The notes under the pieces: model-generated
What the model was told of the DNA's origin: nothing
What the model saw: only the letters and a program-made list of their open reading frames with translations
The model's database searches: none
Shown: positions 26,402 through 32,959 of the stretch, piece by piece
Layout of the letters: each line of letters begins with the position of its first letter
Position numbering within the stretch: the stretch's first letter is position 1
IMG/VR virus record: IMGVR_UViG_3300027741_000083
Span: 1-54,513 of that record
DNA: 54,513 bases
Strand: one strand, 5' to 3'
DNA from: a virus
Taxonomy: Duplodnaviria; Caudoviricetes
Translations under genes and position numbers: made by a program

Positions 26402-27700
26402 TTATTTGCCTCCAAATAGAGAATCTATTTCTGTTTGATATTTATTAGAAACTGCAGAATCCATAGCAGCAGTAGAACTTTCTAAAGAACGAGCTGGAAT
26501 AGCTTGTAAATAAGCGTCTAATGCTATTTCTTCTGCGCCCTTAGGGACGTTTTTAATTTTTAATTCTTTAATACCTTTATTAAGAACATCTAAAAAGCTC
26601 ATTGAATCTGTTGCAAAATGCCCAATATGCTGTTCTAACCTTTTTGCAAAAGATTCTTTTTTTGTAAAATCTTGTTTGCTTTTCATAATTGCTTCGCTTA
26701 CTTGCTTATCAACAAGATTTTTTAATTCAGCAGAGTCCATAGCTTTATAAGCTCCGCTATCTTTTGACTTAGTCATTTCTGAAGATTCATCTTTAGCGAT
26801 TTCTTTTTCTGCTTTTTTCATTTCTTTTTCATCTTCTTTCATATCTTCGTCTTTTACTATAACTTCTTCAGCATCTAATGTTGCTTCTTTTTTCTCCATA
26901 GAAACAATTTTTAACAAAAGATCTATTGCTTTATCTAATTTTTCTTCTATTGTTTTGCTTGTATTAAGTTCAACATCGTCAGTTTTTTCGCCTTCATTTT
27001 CTTCAGCTAAAATTTTGACTTCAACGACTTCTTCTTGTTTTTGTTCTTCTTTATCGTTTAACATCTTTTTCTCCAATCCTGTAATTGAATCACAGGAAAA
27101 GTTTATATAATCCCAGACAGCTATTTTATTTTTAACTTCCCCATTTTTACTATCTAAAGCAAAGTCAAGGCAGTCTAAACTAATAGCAACATCTGACCCA
27201 TTTCTACCTACATCAACAATTGCCTCATGGTTTAATTTTATGTTTTTTTGTCTAACCTTATAAGGTATGCCATTAAAAACACCCGATGAGAGCACATAAA
27301 TACAGCGGTAACCAGCAGATAACTGCCTTTTACCAGAATCAATTAAATCTTTAAATTTTTTTGTATAACCTGTTATTCCGTTTCTTATATATTCGCCATC
27401 AAAATATGGCTTATCAGCTGAAACTCCTTCTATCTGGACATCGTCTGGTAATGTAAGTCCGTCTTTAAAACCAACCATTGTGTGATCGTTAAATAATGGT
27501 TTGCGTTTAAAAGACTCAATACATTCTTCTTTACTTAATTCTTCAGCTGACCTATATACATTTACAATTTCGTTTTCATCAAAAGGATATGAACCGTCTT
27601 CTAGTCGTATTTGAGATCCAGAATAAGGAAAAACGCCAACTTTTATAAGCGGAACATTTTCAAATTCTAAATACCCATTAATATCTTCTTTAAATGCCAC
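26402..27700 (-). CDS. Prohead protease/scaffold (DUF2213 family)
   Basis: GYL..PL.KVGVFPY, LSAGYRC, NHEAIVDVGR; acidic scaffold-like C-half. Confidence 0.88.
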   Translation of the reverse strand: MAFKEDINGYLEFENVPLIKVGVFPYSGSQIRLEDGSYPFDENEIVNVYRSAEELSKEECIESFKRKPLFNDHTMVGFKDGLTLPDDVQIEGVSADKPYFDGEYIRNGITGYTKKFKDLIDSGKRQLSAGYRCIYVLSSGVFNGIPYKVRQKNIKLNHEAIVDVGRNGSDVAISLDCLDFALDSKNGEVKNKIAVWDYINFSCDSITGLEKKMLNDKEEQKQEEVVEVKILAEENEGEKTDDVELNTSKTIEEKLDKAIDLLLKIVSMEKKEATLDAEEVIVKDEDMKEDEKEMKKAEKEIAKDESSEMTKSKDSGAYKAMDSAELKNLVDKQVSEAIMKSKQDFTKKESFAKRLEQHIGHFATDSMSFLDVLNKGIKELKIKNVPKGAEEIALDAYLQAIPARSLESSTAAMDSAVSNKYQTEIDSLFGGK

Positions 27701-27771
27701 TTTAAGCCTTTATTATTGTTTTAATTTATTGTAGGCATTTTAAAACAATATTGCAAGTTTTTATTAAAATA

Positions 27772-29607
27772 TTAATCATTATTATACTCAATAACTGGCA
27801 ACATAATACACTTGCAATTCTTGCTTATTATGTTTGCAGATGATACACTATACCAGCCATTATAACTTTGCATTGTATAAACATGACCGCTAAATACACT
27901 CTTGATTTTTTGACTTACTCTAAAGAGATTCTTGAAGCTGGAGAATCTATTAGGAAATTTGCAGCTAAACATGGGTGCAGCCCTGGAAGGCTCTCTCAGG
28001 CTCTTTATAAATTCATCGGGTACAAAATTCCTATCACTAGGAAAGTCGACTATATAAACTCGAATAAAACTAACATCGTCACAAGTTATGAAAAAGGTGA
28101 AAGCATTCTTAGTATTTCTAAGAGGTACAATATTAGTAGAAGTTCCATACTGAATATCATTAAAGAGTTCGGAATCCTGATCAGGGATAGCAGCAAGGCT
28201 ACTAAAATCAGAATGTCTAAACTTACCACCGACGAAAGAAAAAAACTTTCCGAAATGGCTAGGAAAGCTAGGCTTAAAAACCTTGGAATTAAAGCTAGGG
28301 ATAAAATCATTAGTTATGATATCGGAGAGTGCGAGAACGAACTTTTCAATCTGCTTCTCACTCATGGATTCAATCCAATTCGGCAAAATATTATCGGGGC
28401 TTATAGCGTCGACATCCGTTTCAGGAATGTAGCCGTGGAAGTTAAAATCAGAACTAAGAAGTCTCTTAGCGTTGAAAGTAATATGGAGAGAATTAAAAGT
28501 ATCTTTAAAAGTGACCTTATCCCGTGTTACTTTATTACTAACAGCAAAATCGTTGTTGAAATTATCCCCGATCAAATAATCGCTCTCCTTGATTTCGTTA
28601 GCAGGCAACCACCCCCTAAGGGTCAGTATTGGGTGATTCGGTGTACACTGGAAGACATGCCCTCCGCTCAAGATTATATTAATAATATCTCCACTATAAA
28701 AGTGCCTCCACAAATCAACACAACCATTAGCAAGAGATATTTCTGTTGATCCAACAAAGCAATTAATAGCCTGTGAAGGGAAACCACGTACGCCTGTTTT
28801 TTTATCAATTATAGGTGGGTTATCTATATTATATATTTTACCATTCATCGCAATATGATCTTCCCTTGGATGTTGTCCTCCGCCGCTATGAACCCACTCA
28901 AACTTTTTTTGCCCTATTTCTTTCATTCTTTGAATATTAATACTTGTAAAAACTTTTCTTGTTTGATCTAAAGCTACATTTTTAGCTTTATTATGATGCG
29001 TTTTATATTGTTTTTTTAAGAAACCTTGAATTTCGGGTACCAAATCTTTTAAGCCTTTACCGGTTGTTATAGATCTATAAACAGCTTTTTCAACATTAGT
29101 TAAATAATTTTCTCCTATTGTTTTTATTAAAGCTACATTTTCTTCAATATTAGCTTTCATTATTTGTTTTAAATTTTGGCTAATATTTGAAGTTTTTATT
29201 GTTACAGCACCCGTTAATTTTTTTAGGCTACTATGTAAAGATGCTTTACTAAGTTTTTCTGCTTCTTTTACCATCCTTGTTGAAAAAAGAATACTTTTTT
29301 TATCAAGCCACGGCATAACTCTATTCATTAATTTATTCATAAATATTCTTGATTGGCTGGATATCGCTTCATCCATTGCAATTGATTGGCTTTCAAAAAA
29401 ATCTTCTGAAACGTCAGAATTAAAAAACTTGATCACTGATTTTTCAACATATTCCATTAATGGATCTATAATGCTTTGAACCTTTTTAATATAATAAGTT
29501 TTAAAGCCGGCGTTATAATTTAAAGGAGAACCTTTAAGTATAGTATTTTTTCTACTACTTAACCGATCTCTTTTTTTTTTAGAAATAGAAATTTCTTTTC
29601 TCTTCAT
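27772..29607 (-). CDS. MuF-like minor head/morphogenesis protein containing an intein
   Basis: A.DQT.K, W.HSGGG.HPREDH, and FPSQAIN|CKC rejoined after intein removal (296-aa spliced product). Confidence 0.9.
   Translation of the reverse strand: MKRKEISISKKKRDRLSSRKNTILKGSPLNYNAGFKTYYIKKVQSIIDPLMEYVEKSVIKFFNSDVSEDFFESQSIAMDEAISSQSRIFMNKLMNRVMPWLDKKSILFSTRMVKEAEKLSKASLHSSLKKLTGAVTIKTSNISQNLKQIMKANIEENVALIKTIGENYLTNVEKAVYRSITTGKGLKDLVPEIQGFLKKQYKTHHNKAKNVALDQTRKVFTSINIQRMKEIGQKKFEWVHSGGGQHPREDHIAMNGKIYNIDNPPIIDKKTGVRGFPSQAINCFVGSTEISLANGCVDLWRHFYSGDIINIILSGGHVFQCTPNHPILTLRGWLPANEIKESDYLIGDNFNNDFAVSNKVTRDKVTFKDTFNSLHITFNAKRLLSSDFNFHGYIPETDVDAISPDNILPNWIESMSEKQIEKFVLALSDIITNDFIPSFNSKVFKPSFPSHFGKFFSFVGGKFRHSDFSSLAAIPDQDSELFNDIQYGTSTNIVPLRNTKNAFTFFITCDDVSFIRVYIVDFPSDRNFVPDEFIKSLREPSRAAPMFSCKFPNRFSSFKNLFRVSQKIKSVFSGHVYTMQSYNGWYSVSSANIISKNCKCIMLPVIEYNND
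27817..28761 (-). mobile_element. Intein (315 aa, residues 283-597 of MuF)
   Basis: Block A CFVGSTEI, block B TPNHPILT.RGW.PA, block F SGHVYTMQ, block G IISKN followed by Cys+1. Confidence 0.9.
27883..28749 (+). CDS. Putative homing endonuclease (two HTH plus Vsr/DUF559-like PD-(D/E)xK domain), antisense within the intein
   Basis: GESIRKFAAKHGCS and YEKGESILSISKRYNISRSSI HTHs; DERKKLSE helix; E.EL..LL..GF..IRQ.IIGAYSVDI..VAVEV; ATG at 27883 or TTG at 27868. Confidence 0.8.
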   Translation: MTAKYTLDFLTYSKEILEAGESIRKFAAKHGCSPGRLSQALYKFIGYKIPITRKVDYINSNKTNIVTSYEKGESILSISKRYNISRSSILNIIKEFGILIRDSSKATKIRMSKLTTDERKKLSEMARKARLKNLGIKARDKIISYDIGECENELFNLLLTHGFNPIRQNIIGAYSVDIRFRNVAVEVKIRTKKSLSVESNMERIKSIFKSDLIPCYFITNSKIVVEIIPDQIIALLDFVSRQPPPKGQYWVIRCTLEDMPSAQDYINNISTIKVPPQINTTISKRYFC

Positions 29608-29615
29608 ATTTTTAT

Positions 29616-31316
29616 TTATAAATTATTATTTAAACTTAATTCTTCAAGCTCTTCAATTTCATTTTTCCCTTCGTTTCCATTTTGATTATTTAATTCTTCG
29701 TTTTCTTGTTCTATCCCATTAAACCCACTATTAGGGTTATTAATTAAACGTTTTCTTGCTTCATCCGGCATTATAATTCCAGTATTTACTAAAACAGAAT
29801 CTGTCTCAGCATCTATCTTATTAATTTCTGCTTGTTCTTTTGAAGTTAGCTCATCTAAAGGATTCCATTTAATATCAACAGAAAATTCTTTAACTTCAAA
29901 CTCTGGTAATATTTCTGATTTTATTATTAGTAAGTGGTGCCTATGTAAAACAGGATTGCATCTTAAAACTCTTAAATCTGTTAAATATTCTTTATAACTA
30001 TTTTCACTATAAGATCCTGAAGATTGGAAACCTGTGGGCTCTGAACCCATAAGTTTTACTGCCGGGACATTAGCAGAAGCGGCAACAAGTTGATAATTAT
30101 TCATAATTACTTTATCAACATCAGATAAAGCTGTATCTATATGCTGTATATCATCAGACTCTTTATCAACAACATGATAAGAGTAATTATTAAGCGTATT
30201 AGCTATAAACTGTAAATTTGCTTGAAAATCTGCTTGATTTTGAACAGCTAGCTTTAAATCTGTTTTATATATTTTAGCTCTTTTAGATAACATTAATTTT
30301 GATGCGTCATTTGCGCAGTATTCTGCTTGATAAACTCTTTCAAATATTTGTTGCGTTTTAGGTACCCCCCCATAATAATAAGTTGGTTTTAAAACATCAG
30401 GAACTTTGTTTGTTGTTATAATAACAAGATGAGATCGATGATATCTTTTACCGGCTATAGTCCAATAAGTAGGGTTATAGAAATTTAAACTACCAGGATT
30501 AGTTACATCTTCAGATTCAAGAGAAGGGGTACACCAATACGGATCAACTTGTTTTATTCCTTTATAAGACCCGGGTGTAATTCCATCAATATTAAATATT
30601 TTTTCATAATATTTTGGATCTTTGCTTTCAACAATAAAAAGACATAGTCTAATTCCAAAAATATCACAATTTCTAACTACTTCTACTAATTGCCTATGTA
30701 TATCAAATTTTTTATCAAAATCTTTTAATTTATTTAGCGCTTCTAAAGGTACTTCTTTCCCATCATTAACTGTTATTTCGTAACCATTTCGCACACAATC
30801 TTGGGCTGGAATACTACAAGCTTTATCAATTAGCCAATGTTGCGATAATATTGCGCAAGCTTGCCAGCCTATAAATGATTGTTTTGCAAAAAAATTAAAC
30901 TCTTGAATTGAGTAACCTATTTGATTATTTTGCATACTTGCAAAACTATTTTGATTTTGTATATTAATATTTTGTTCCAATGAAAGTGCAATAGTCTTAT
31001 CTCTAGAGTCCATTGCGACAACAAGACCATCTTTATTCTTTATATTAATTGGTTGTATATCATTACTTGCGTTTCTTCTAAAATTGTTATTAATAGCTAT
31101 AGCTAATAACTTCTCTCTTGTTTTTTCTTCTAATTCATTGTTATTAAAAAAATCTTCTTGTTTTGTTTTGTCGTTAAAAAACGCAGAAAAAACCTGTTCA
31201 TTTCTTTTTTCAATTTCATTTTTTTCAGGAATTTTACTTTTAATTTTAGATTTAAAAATTGATTTTATTTTTTTTATTATTTTCATTTTTTTATTTACCA
31301 TTTTGCATTTGCCCAA
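29616..31316 (-). CDS. Portal protein (DUF1073-like)
   Basis: FIGWQ.CAIL.QHWLI.KAC, NIDG..PGSYKG, IHxS-like, P..KL.G..P.G motifs; between terminase and MuF. Confidence 0.88.
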   Translation of the reverse strand: MGKCKMVNKKMKIIKKIKSIFKSKIKSKIPEKNEIEKRNEQVFSAFFNDKTKQEDFFNNNELEEKTREKLLAIAINNNFRRNASNDIQPINIKNKDGLVVAMDSRDKTIALSLEQNINIQNQNSFASMQNNQIGYSIQEFNFFAKQSFIGWQACAILSQHWLIDKACSIPAQDCVRNGYEITVNDGKEVPLEALNKLKDFDKKFDIHRQLVEVVRNCDIFGIRLCLFIVESKDPKYYEKIFNIDGITPGSYKGIKQVDPYWCTPSLESEDVTNPGSLNFYNPTYWTIAGKRYHRSHLVIITTNKVPDVLKPTYYYGGVPKTQQIFERVYQAEYCANDASKLMLSKRAKIYKTDLKLAVQNQADFQANLQFIANTLNNYSYHVVDKESDDIQHIDTALSDVDKVIMNNYQLVAASANVPAVKLMGSEPTGFQSSGSYSENSYKEYLTDLRVLRCNPVLHRHHLLIIKSEILPEFEVKEFSVDIKWNPLDELTSKEQAEINKIDAETDSVLVNTGIIMPDEARKRLINNPNSGFNGIEQENEELNNQNGNEGKNEIEELEELSLNNNL

Positions 31317-32959
31317 TAAGGAAGTTCTTTACCTTTTGCAAAAGCCATCATCAAAGCATCGGACAAATTTGGCGATTTTGTACTATTAGGCTTTTTATCA
31401 ATTATAAATTTACCTTCTGGTGTCTGTATTGCAACAGGCTGAGAAATTTCTCTTACAAGTTTTAAGTGTAAATTTGAAGATGAGCTAATTGAAATAATAT
31501 TCCCCTCTTCAAAACTTTCTCCATTTACTACTGCTTTATATGTATTTTCAAACCTTCTTCTTAAATCAAAATAAGCTTGCGCCTTCCTGTTTTTATAATA
31601 ATCTTTGTTTTTTCTTGATATAGATTTTTGCATAGAATTAATAGTGCTTTTATCAGGAAAAACTTCTTTCTCAGGATCTATAATAGCACCAGAACCTCTA
31701 AAAGGCTCGAAAATTAATTGAGAGTCTTTAGGTCTTTTTTTATTTATTTCTTCTGCGTCACCTCTAGCTCCTGCTCCAAGCCCGTCACTATCAAATATTA
31801 TTTTTTCGTAACCTTCTCTATCTGATATTTCAAATGCTTTTTCTACCGTTTTAAATAAGTTACTACCAACGCCAGACCACTCTTCAAGGTATTCTACCAA
31901 GAATCCATATATACCACATATTGCATTTTTGTCTATACCTTCGTCGGCTAAATCTAACGCAGCCCACCTTGACCCGCTTGGTTGTATATTTAATTTAATA
32001 TGCGCATCTATGGATGCTTTTACCCATTCAGTAGGTATTAGTATACCTTCAGCAGAAGCATCTAAATCCATATCAAGTTCTTGCGCTTTAATCACTGGGT
32101 TATCAATTTTTTCTACTTCTCTTTTATACCATTCTTCATTTTTTCTTGGATCATCAGTCCACGGAAATTCAAAAAGCCTTTCTTTTTCTGATTCTTGTGG
32201 AGATTCTTTAATTGCTAAAATTTTTTTTGCGAACTCATTCGCACTACCTCTTACTGTAGACCCAAATATTTTTGTATTCGTTGCAGAAACTAAAGAGCTT
32301 TCCATCGAAGAAGCAACAGAAGGTTCAAAAGCAGCGTGTTCATCAATATGAATCCAACTATAACGACTGCCTCGGAATGGCATATTTCCGCCATCCCCCA
32401 TAATTAATGAAGAGCTTTTATTAAAACTAATTTGCATTAATTTTGAGTTTTTACCTTGCTCCCAATTATTTGAAAATTCACGAGGTACGTTTTCAATAAA
32501 AGATCTGCATTTTCCTAAAATTGAATCTGTACTTCCTATCTTATCTATATAAGATGATTTATAAGATGTTATTCCAGCTTTGAAGCCTTCATTAAACATA
32601 CACATTGACGAATCTAATGCAGCTAATTGACTAGTAAACCCTATCTCTCTCGTCTTTACAAAAACGCCGTCTAGTTCATTTTCTAATAAATAAATTTGCC
32701 AATTTATAGCTTGTATTTGCCTGGGGAATAAAATAAAAGGTAATAATGTCGAACTTCCTTTATTAACGCTTCGAGGATCTATTGTTGTTCCCCAGTCAAT
32801 AATAAACCTAGCTATATTTTTTCTATAAAAAGCTTTTAAATTTGGGAAAGTAGAAGGCCTTGTTTTTGAAAGTTTCCTTAAATATTCTATTCTTTCAAAA
32901 CGATCAACAAATATTTTTCCGTATTCTGGATTTTTAAAGTCAAAATTATTTTCAATCAT
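31295..32959 (-). CDS. Terminase large subunit
   Basis: KTREIGFT Walker A-like, IDEHA Walker B, LDLADEG.D and SPNLSDA nuclease motifs. Confidence 0.92.
   Translation of the reverse strand: MIENNFDFKNPEYGKIFVDRFERIEYLRKLSKTRPSTFPNLKAFYRKNIARFIIDWGTTIDPRSVNKGSSTLLPFILFPRQIQAINWQIYLLENELDGVFVKTREIGFTSQLAALDSSMCMFNEGFKAGITSYKSSYIDKIGSTDSILGKCRSFIENVPREFSNNWEQGKNSKLMQISFNKSSSLIMGDGGNMPFRGSRYSWIHIDEHAAFEPSVASSMESSLVSATNTKIFGSTVRGSANEFAKKILAIKESPQESEKERLFEFPWTDDPRKNEEWYKREVEKIDNPVIKAQELDMDLDASAEGILIPTEWVKASIDAHIKLNIQPSGSRWAALDLADEGIDKNAICGIYGFLVEYLEEWSGVGSNLFKTVEKAFEISDREGYEKIIFDSDGLGAGARGDAEEINKKRPKDSQLIFEPFRGSGAIIDPEKEVFPDKSTINSMQKSISRKNKDYYKNRKAQAYFDLRRRFENTYKAVVNGESFEEGNIISISSSSNLHLKLVREISQPVAIQTPEGKFIIDKKPNSTKSPNLSDALMMAFAKGKELPYWANAKW

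Follow-up and report, generated by a model that had tools for sequence, protein, structure and literature searches.

A conserved antisense gene for a Vsr-like, probable homing endonuclease within an intein of a phage MuF head gene

One insertion with genes on both strands

The record IMGVR_UViG_3300027741_000083 is a complete 54.5-kb uncultured virus record with 31% GC, and the virus is a phage from freshwater metagenomes. We analysed the whole stretch of 54,513 nucleotides, which is called the window below. In the window, the gene of a MuF-like head morphogenesis protein (27772..29607, minus strand) is interrupted by an intein, and the strand opposite to the intein carries a second gene. This second gene is conserved, is under purifying selection, and encodes helix-turn-helix (HTH) units followed by a Vsr-like nuclease. 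We consider the insertion to be a mobile intein of the antisense Vsr-like homing endonuclease type, located at the conserved QAIN/C(K/R)C site near the MuF C-terminus, with a probability of about 0.78. The two frames are both genuine, are conserved and evolve under purifying selection, and which strand carries the stronger constraint changes along the element. Inteins with an antisense endonuclease are real and widespread in phages, and the window holds a further case of a recently described kind.

The MuF open reading frame (ORF) codes for a precursor of 611 amino acids (aa) including the intein. Its assignment comes from the ORF list, Pfam and PHROG. The Pfam family Phage_Mu_F matches above its cut-off (E 2.2e-9, 38.5 bits against 29.6), phrog_15127 'head protein' matches residues 38-607 with E 3.2e-65, and several other PHROG head families match too. 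In related loci, the MuF gene usually stands after the portal gene. The N-extein (residues 1-282; 28762..29607, minus strand) ends with GFPSQAIN, where intein-less relatives continue uninterrupted as QAIN-C(K/R/G)C. The intein (residues 283-597; 27817..28761, minus strand) starts with CFVGSTE, holds TPNH and ends with ISKN, after which CKC follows. The C-extein CKCIMLPVIEYNND with the stop codon occupies 27772..27816 of the minus strand, and its +1 Cys is invariant. A first-pass annotation of this DNA had described a 315-aa intein running from Cys1 to Asn, with Cys+1 and a TxxH block B (T322-x-x-H325). We confirmed its coordinates and residues, as well as the proposed junction GCT ATT AAT / TGC AAG TGT. 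The predicted spliced MuF has 296 aa.

The antisense homing-endonuclease-like gene (27883..28749, plus strand) runs from an ATG at 27883 to a TGA stop and encodes 288 aa. It was claimed to lie wholly inside the intein and to cover block B, and this is the case: the ORF spans 288 of the 315 intein codons. An alternative TTG start at 27868 would give 293 aa (27868..28749), and the frame from stop to stop has 301 codons. The MuF and plus frames have the same codon boundaries, plus residue i being opposite MuF residue 576-i. The start and stop of the plus ORF are anchored in the intein blocks: its ATG is the His575 codon (block F) read in reverse complement, and its TGA is likewise the Ser287 codon (block A).

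Conserved ends and an unfolded interior of the intein

To describe the intein, we used an alignment (A2) of 56 rows, made up of the window MuF and 55 of 66 intein-bearing matches. P0156, P0185, P0189, P0201, P0205, P0207, P0211 and P0214-P0217 were left out as fragments or partial matches. All 56 sequences share Cys1, the block B residues T, N, H and P, V and Y in block F, the terminal Asn and the +1 Cys without exception. In the C-terminal lobe of the Hint domain, G, H, V, Y and T are conserved together with the terminal K and N. The window intein has the residues of a class 1 Hint domain, namely Cys283 and T322-P-N-H325 at one end and Asn597 with Cys598 at the other. The intein looks competent and mobile, and it would be expected to splice.

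The Hint N-terminal lobe (about residues 283-350, blocks A and B) lies at 28558..28761 of the minus strand, with an approximate boundary, and the C-terminal lobe (about residues 559-597, blocks F and G, ending in GHVYTMQSYNGWYSVSSANIISKN) lies at 27817..27933. The predicted score (pLDDT) of the local distance difference test is 72-88 in the first and 71-91 in the second. Between them, the sense-frame interior (about residues 351-558; 27934..28557, minus strand) is open and has no predicted fold. In the model of the MuF precursor, built from the 56 rows, residues 406-531 and 533-558 have a pLDDT below 50, and the intein ends are at about 60-91. A Foldseek search with the intein model returned the mini-intein splicing domains of Mtu RecA, Ssp DnaB, Npu DnaB and gp41-1 first. 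Full-length inteins with an endonuclease came only at ranks 21, 31 and 36, with probabilities of 0.30-0.41, and the Foldseek list held no confident match of an endonuclease domain to the sense-frame intein. Pfam found no LAGLIDADG or HNH family in the sense-frame interior. It had been suspected of being filler without these motifs, and the lack of family matches, the pLDDT below 50 and a weaker constraint than in the plus frame all agree with this. We propose that the interior of about 200 residues may only need to stay open and harmless.

Absence of TTA, CTA and TCA codons

Because the two frames are in a shared phase, every TTA, CTA or TCA in one of them is a stop in the other. The avoidance of these codons, pointed out in the first-pass annotation, is complete in the plus ORF. 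Its 22 Leu codons are TTG (2), CTT (13), CTC (3) and CTG (4), and none of its 28 Ser codons is TCA. Across the 8063 codons of 22 further long ORFs in the window, the share of the three is 7.9%, and 68% of the Leu codons are of this kind. The chance of finding none of them in 293 codons is 3.5e-11, and it falls to 1.2e-15 given the Leu and Ser content. The longest runs that are open in the same antisense phase in those 22 ORFs have 29-142 codons. In the MuF frame, the N-extein holds 20 TTA, CTA or TCA sites in 282 codons. Within the intein, there are only two, Ser287, which is the stop of the plus ORF, and residue 589, whose codon is the stop that bounds the plus frame upstream. Thus, the double open frame is not due to chance. 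Long antisense overlaps are rarely demonstrable in bacteria and phages, and the 31% GC of this genome makes the present one statistically clean.

The GC content is 37% in the intein and 28% in the N-extein, and at third codon positions it is 0.36 and 0.17, respectively. These values fit a foreign, possibly higher-GC origin of the intein, or the cost of avoiding TTA, CTA and TCA on two strands.

The antisense protein

Using an exhaustive HMMER search of 1.84 billion cluster representatives, we found 1071 relatives of the plus protein at E<=1e-3 (counted among 50%-identity representatives), 249 at E<=1e-10 and 9 at E<=1e-30. A word-indexed protein search gave only two relatives. Since HMMER found 1071, this low figure reflects the word index and not rarity. 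Only protein-level searches detected relatives; blastn of 27700-28900 against the phage collection returned nothing. The relatives are mostly about 290 aa long and colinear. Alignment A1 contains 66 rows, the window protein and 65 of the 150 hits listed, chosen as full-length and colinear. In A1, G72, R101, Q168, D177 and E186 are invariant, and M1, G148, G150 and E151 are nearly so, Met1 being present in at least 90% of the 66 relatives.

AlphaFold, run with the 66 rows, modelled the plus protein with a mean pLDDT of 92.5, a predicted template modelling (TM) score of 0.74 and no segment below 50. The model shows two HTH units, a long helix, an alpha/beta nuclease core and a C-terminal hairpin. 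The DNA-binding half with both HTH units and the long helix comprises plus residues 1-140 (27883..28302). The Vsr-like core with E151, Q168, D177 and E186 comprises about residues 141-245 (28303..28617). The beta-hairpin tail (residues 246-288; 28618..28746, all on the plus strand) has strands at 248-257 and 277-286 and lies opposite the Hint N-terminal lobe. AlphaFold modelling of both frames had been suggested, and it gave an HTH protein with a Vsr-like nuclease in the plus frame and Hint-like ends with a disordered insert in the sense frame.

Other searches point to the same domains. Pfam HTH_28 matches residues 62-96 above the cut-off (E 7.7e-7) and HTH_Tnp_1 matches below it (E 7e-4), and the A1 profile matches the two-HTH protein 2LVS at positions 8-100 (E 3e-6). 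For the nuclease, the best Foldseek match in the PDB is the catalytic domain of I-Bth0305I, 3R3P (probability 1.00, TM 0.67 on the target, E 2.6e-3, 97 columns), and the DUF559-like protein 3HRL is a further match. The A1 profile hits 3HRL at positions 154-248 (E 1.7e-4) and 3R3P with E 0.038. Among the 66 members, Pfam at E<=0.01 assigns MTES_1575 to 14, DUF559 to two and HTH_23 to 27, the first two being families of the Vsr-like PD-(D/E)xK clan. The best named matches in a viral structure library are 'DNA mismatch endonuclease', 'DUF559', 'Nuclease associated modular domain 3' and 'Homing endonuclease'. The second-ranked match in this library, A7KV39 (266 aa), aligns over 273 columns that span both the DNA-binding and the nuclease halves. 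A phmmer search with plus residues 140-260 against PDB sequences gave chance-level matches only. Of the domains proposed earlier, the two HTHs are supported by the Pfam matches and the Vsr-like core by 3R3P and 3HRL, and the quoted core motif RQNIIGAYSVDIRFRNVAVEVKI is present in the protein. The NUMOD3-like helix is not supported, as no NUMOD family matched the plus protein in the family searches.

Selection switches strand along the element

Using codon alignments of eight locus pairs, we scored codons with one changed base for the frame in which the change is silent. In the HTH part (plus residues 19-140), 124 changes are silent in the plus frame only and 38 in the minus frame only, and in the nuclease core (residues 141-225) these numbers are 75 and 38 (the pairs share members and are not independent). 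Opposite the Hint N-terminal lobe (residues 226-288), the ratio is reversed, with 27 plus-only and 45 minus-only changes, and the same is seen opposite the Hint C-terminal lobe (residues 1-18), with 4 and 8. Thus, in the middle of the element the endonuclease is the more constrained, and towards the ends the intein is, and the reversal of the bias at the ends serves as an internal control. This is the per-frame comparison that the first-pass annotation had called for, and it favours the plus frame in the interior and the intein frame over the Hint lobes. Of 55 locus pairs, 48 also have a higher BLAST score in the plus than in the minus frame (38 of 45 when the free-standing locus described below is set aside), and this excess holds although the minus frame contains the splicing blocks. 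Some conserved motifs have shadows on the other strand. The plus 'YWVIRC' is the reverse reading of the block B 'TPNHP', and the minus 'FNFHG..DVD' is the reverse reading of the plus 'VAVE.K' and 'Y.ID'.

A free-standing homologue beside an intein-less MuF gene

In Acinetobacter phage vB_AbaM_IME285 (MH853786.1; locus L008, 413-2118), the homologue of the plus ORF is a separate gene, recorded as coding for a hypothetical protein. It converges on an intein-less MuF gene, overlaps it by 7 nucleotides and adjoins its C-terminal CKC motif. The MuF protein of this phage ends in MCKCRAKLIIEIPDNLINQ, and its CKC motif is homologous to the intein insertion site. The free-standing protein matches the embedded ones with up to 159 bits and keeps the C-terminal hairpin. 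Its gene has 311 codons at 34% GC, among them 9 TTA, 1 CTA and 3 TCA, so that the opposite frame has 13 stops. The free-standing gene thus uses the "forbidden" codons, and this natural control shows that the constraint in the window is real. There are no trustworthy Hint remnants in the minus frame of the IME285 gene, so that either form, free-standing or embedded, may be the ancestral one. Two more Acinetobacter phages, P1068 and BUCT629, have tblastn matches of the same kind.

Free-standing homing endonuclease genes that lie beside their target gene are known in phages from the seg and mob genes of T4, where the process is called "intronless homing". The IME285 homologue resembles them in its position beside the target gene. 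The window endonuclease is embedded instead and has its codons in common with the intein.

Distribution in phages

A tblastn search of 50,697 phage records with the plus protein gave matches in 51 records at 23-28% identity. Their hosts are Pseudomonas (14), Klebsiella (8), Gordonia (8), Vibrio (4), Acinetobacter (3) and Salmonella (3), and the remaining records belong to Edwardsiella, Haemophilus/Aggregatibacter, Idiomarinaceae, Pantoea, Cronobacter and an enrichment-culture virus. We inspected 20 phage loci from these records (two of them, Aaphi23 and S1249, are identical in the region). For Aaphi23, a 'MupF' intein was reportedly entered in the old InBase registry. In 19, the match is antisense within an annotated head, MuF or minor capsid gene. 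Both frames are open with common codon boundaries in these 19 loci and in the IMG/VR relative L005, although in the high-GC Pseudomonas and Gordonia loci openness alone means little. Stops in homologous inteins had been named as the observation that would speak against the antisense gene; the plus frame is open in all 20 intein-bearing loci. The MuF-like minor capsid genes of Gordonia phages Vivi2, Fosterous, Affeca, Angelicage and Malisha match with E from 1e-17 to 7e-9.

None of the intein-bearing phage records that we inspected has the plus ORF annotated; only the MuF strand is called. Since annotation pipelines call only this strand, the endonuclease family is largely invisible in phage genomes. 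Its unannotated members occur in cultured phages of Klebsiella, Pseudomonas, Salmonella, Vibrio, Edwardsiella and Aggregatibacter, where direct testing is possible.

Two side observations concern high-GC and long loci. In Pseudomonas phage vB_Pae_BR313c (L011, 2-3169), a frame antisense to the late genes is open for 1056 codons at high GC. Antisense ORFs cost nothing in such genomes, which makes them a plausible birthplace of the arrangement. In Gordonia phages Vivi2, Fosterous and Angelicage (L003, L015 and L016), the module-carrying MuF-like genes code for more than 1000 aa, about twice as many as in the other phages. They would therefore contain further domains or inserts downstream of the intein.

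Proposed homing cycle and alternative explanations

We propose the following mechanism. On the minus strand, the 611-aa precursor would be translated through the whole insert. The Hint domain formed by the two intein ends (Cys283, T322xxH325, Asn597 and Cys598) would then splice itself out and leave the 296-aa MuF. On the plus strand, the same codons in the same phase would give the separate 288-aa protein from its own antisense message. Most likely, this protein recognises the uninterrupted MuF site in an intein-less phage that infects the same cell and cuts it there, and repair from the intein-bearing allele would copy the whole element. The first-pass annotation had seen here a dual-strand selfish element, which it supposed might uncouple homing from late head-gene expression. 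Its genetic basis stands, with an antisense gene that is conserved, selected and nuclease-like and with splicing residues invariant in 56 of 56 sequences. From sequence, we infer that the plus ORF is transcribed and translated, that its product cleaves site-specifically, that the element homes and that the intein splices.

The presumed target is common. There are 191 intein-less MuF relatives of about 295 aa at E<=1e-10, and among the 120 listed, 103 have NCxC within the last 40 residues, typically as GIPGQAINC(K/R/G)CTM.PV. This is the sequence that the window would regain on splicing. Shortened forms of the element also exist. The metagenome MuF proteins P0181 and P0188 (481 and 456 aa) have inteins of only 195 and 171 aa, in which the segment coding for the HTH half is deleted, and the Hint lobes and the 'FNFHGDIP' stretch are kept. 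These are probably decaying elements, such as endonuclease decay would leave, and the deletions show that the sense interior is dispensable for keeping the frame.

As a sign of recent homing, we considered the low divergence of the intein from L005, a phage 93-98% identical to that of the window. Over 26402-31746, 2.4% of bases differ in the intein and 5.9-7.4% in the flanking genes, and in the 3' two-thirds of the intein (28183-28782) the difference is 1.3-1.7%. We rejected this sign as ambiguous, since double coding alone removes most silent sites and suffices to explain the difference.

The most serious alternative is that the plus ORF is real and selected, and that its product, which would merely reside in the intein, never was or no longer is the homing enzyme of this intein but a DNA-binding regulator, a nuclease against competing phages (marker exclusion) or a nuclease with another target. 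We consider this unlikely, but several results weigh in its favour or against the main reading. The structural matches of the nuclease core are probable by Foldseek probability and weak by E-value (2.6e-3), and no Pfam nuclease family matches the window's own plus protein (the best is UPF0102, E 0.06). No His is invariant across the 66 rows, so the EDxHD motif of I-Bth0305I is absent, and the Lys of the classical ExK motif is not conserved. For these two reasons, the catalytic mechanism is uncertain. On a FastTree tree of the exteins (174 rows, 56 with the intein and 118 without, no support values), intein presence changes at least 13 times, and in 200 label shuffles it changes 47.7 times on average and 40 times at minimum. 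The 118 are the 120 intein-less proteins listed minus two shorter than 250 aa, and the sets with and without the intein were sampled by different queries. Since 13 is far below 47.7, much of the distribution appears to be vertical, patchy but largely clade-wise. A similar picture comes from the actinophages, where the available part of the preprint bioRxiv 10.1101/2025.01.02.630785 reports several VSR-like cases that look vertically inherited. The nearest extein relatives with and without the intein are all distant on the tree (1.3 or more), one 97%-identical sequence excepted. In the contigs of four related metagenome runs (X2, X4, X5 and X7), we found no joint skipping the intein (26900-29800), and this null result is not evidence that intein-less alleles are absent. 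With no such allele in the contigs and with such distant relatives, recent homing in this lineage is hypothetical. The free-standing homologue, moreover, persists beside an intein-less MuF. The signals of expression give no help either. No RNA run was found that contains this DNA. There is no Shine-Dalgarno sequence before the ATG at 27883, as is also the case for MuF and several other phage genes. The scans for promoter-like sites (6, against a shuffle mean of 7.4) and terminator-like sites (none) are uninformative. The shared members of the locus pairs further lessen the weight of the substitution counts.

Three results nevertheless favour a homing enzyme over another function. E151, Q168, D177 and E186 are invariant or nearly invariant in the 66 rows, which speaks for an active site that has been kept. 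Almost all occurrences of the gene are within or next to this one MuF site, as expected for a site-specific homing enzyme. Finally, the shortened inteins without the HTH part are what a homing cycle predicts.

It is also possible to suppose that the insert is not a working intein but a fusion, a truncated MuF or a dead gene with Hint-like ends as relics. The Pfam Intein_splicing match (E 4.5e-7) reaches 30.2 bits and is below the cut-off of 35.8, the penultimate intein residue is Lys and not the common His, and the Foldseek matches to mini-inteins, with probabilities of up to 1.00, are weak (E about 1e-2, TM about 0.38 on the target). Against this, Cys1, TxxH, the terminal Asn and the +1 Cys never vary, and the frame stays open through 315 codons at 31% GC. 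The insertion falls precisely within NC(K/R)C, a motif conserved in intein-less MuF proteins, and the minus frame is the more constrained one over the Hint lobes. This supposition is therefore very improbable.

Least credible of all is a mere shadow, that is a spurious family created by the conservation of the intein frame and by gene callers on short contigs: all relatives share one codon phase, so conservation leaks between frames (as in 'YWVIRC' opposite block B), and both proteins from the word-indexed search come from contigs of 1-1.6 kb, but a shadow explains neither the absence of TTA, CTA and TCA (P about 1e-11), nor the above-cut-off Pfam HTH and high pLDDT opposite an unfolded sense interior, nor the silent changes in the interior, nor the IME285 protein, which is intact and conserved opposite a frame with 13 stops.

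Relation to known systems

Our literature search for antisense endonucleases in inteins found a single work on the subject, a 2025 preprint by Gosselin, Arsenault and Gogarten (bioRxiv 10.1101/2025.01.02.630785, version 2025-10-20). According to its available text, 63 actinophage inteins have non-canonical endonucleases, among them antisense LAGLIDADG and antisense VSR-like ones, and HHpred matched the VSR-like protein to 3R3P. The same text states that inteins of minor capsid genes carry non-canonical endonucleases only, and it proposes that a free-standing endonuclease gene invaded an intein. For antisense LAGLIDADG endonucleases, it cites Gorbalenya 1998 and Gogarten 2002 (Synechocystis DnaX and a Chloroflexus SpoVR-like protein). 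The arrangement proposed in the first-pass annotation is therefore real, and it is not the first of its kind, the antisense VSR-like endonucleases having been described in that preprint.

As far as the preprint text at hand goes, the actinophage VSR-like cases, which form its clusters 60 and 91, resemble the window in having a full intein and, on the opposite strand, a 3R3P-related Vsr-like nuclease after a long helical region. It is very likely that the window protein belongs to the same family, because it is homologous to the antisense ORFs in the MuF genes of Gordonia phages (E 1e-17). The window differs in coming from an uncultured phage with 31% GC, and the module reaches gammaproteobacterial phages and 1071 clusters. 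The antisense LAGLIDADG inteins, as described there, also have an endonuclease gene opposite a continuous intein, but with another nuclease family, in other host genes and in cellular genomes. Compared with the available preprint text, the present analysis adds a clean low-GC case and the spread of the homologous module far past actinophages. It further adds that the shared codon phase is invariant, with the start and stop anchored in blocks F and A, that purifying selection changes strand along the element, and that a free-standing form exists next to an intein-less MuF.

The I-Bth0305I family is the other relevant group. In the accessible part of Taylor et al. 2011 (PMC3239194), I-Bth0305I cuts beside the insertion site of its intron, its Vsr-like domain was solved, and its N-terminal part has NUMOD/HTH repeats. 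A composite E-D-x-H-D motif including a His as the general base defines the family. The EDxHD/Vsr-like endonuclease genes reported in split inteins are all on the same strand in the accessible part of Dassa et al. 2009 (PMC2677866). On the evidence of these texts, the family resembles the window protein in its N-terminal HTH/NUMOD-type repeats and C-terminal Vsr-like nuclease and in its phage, intron, split-intein and free-standing homes. Its genes differ in sharing the strand of their host element, a group I intron or a split intein whose halves they separate. The window family differs in that the His of EDxHD is not conserved, and its sequence is closer to 3HRL, DUF559 and MTES_1575.

A possible two-strand gene pair and the neighbouring gene

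One may ask whether the module is a single ancient two-strand gene pair, adaptive as such and not a tolerated accident. We regard this as possible but doubtful. If it is true, about 80 codons encode parts of two folded proteins at once, where the Hint N-terminal lobe lies opposite the endonuclease hairpin and the block F His codon lies opposite the start codon. Selection on each strand would then protect the other from decay, and the endonuclease, transcribed against the late operon, would be made at a different time from MuF. Such mutual protection could explain the persistence of the module across phages of Actinobacteria and of several orders of Gammaproteobacteria, in more than 1000 protein clusters. 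Few long antisense gene overlaps known from phages would then be as widespread as this pair. The element also shows how a mini-intein can fuse with a free-standing endonuclease to form a single mobile unit. Such a fusion bears on the "splicing first" view of intein origin, as found in the parts of PMC2677866 and bioRxiv 10.1101/2025.01.02.630785 that are available.

Downstream of MuF, a gene at 26402-27700 (minus strand) encodes a protein with a long, very acidic, Lys- and Glu-rich central stretch, which has the look of a scaffold- or protease-type head protein. The GTG at 27700 that is listed as its start is doubtful, and an in-frame ATG at 27478 would give a protein of 358 aa.

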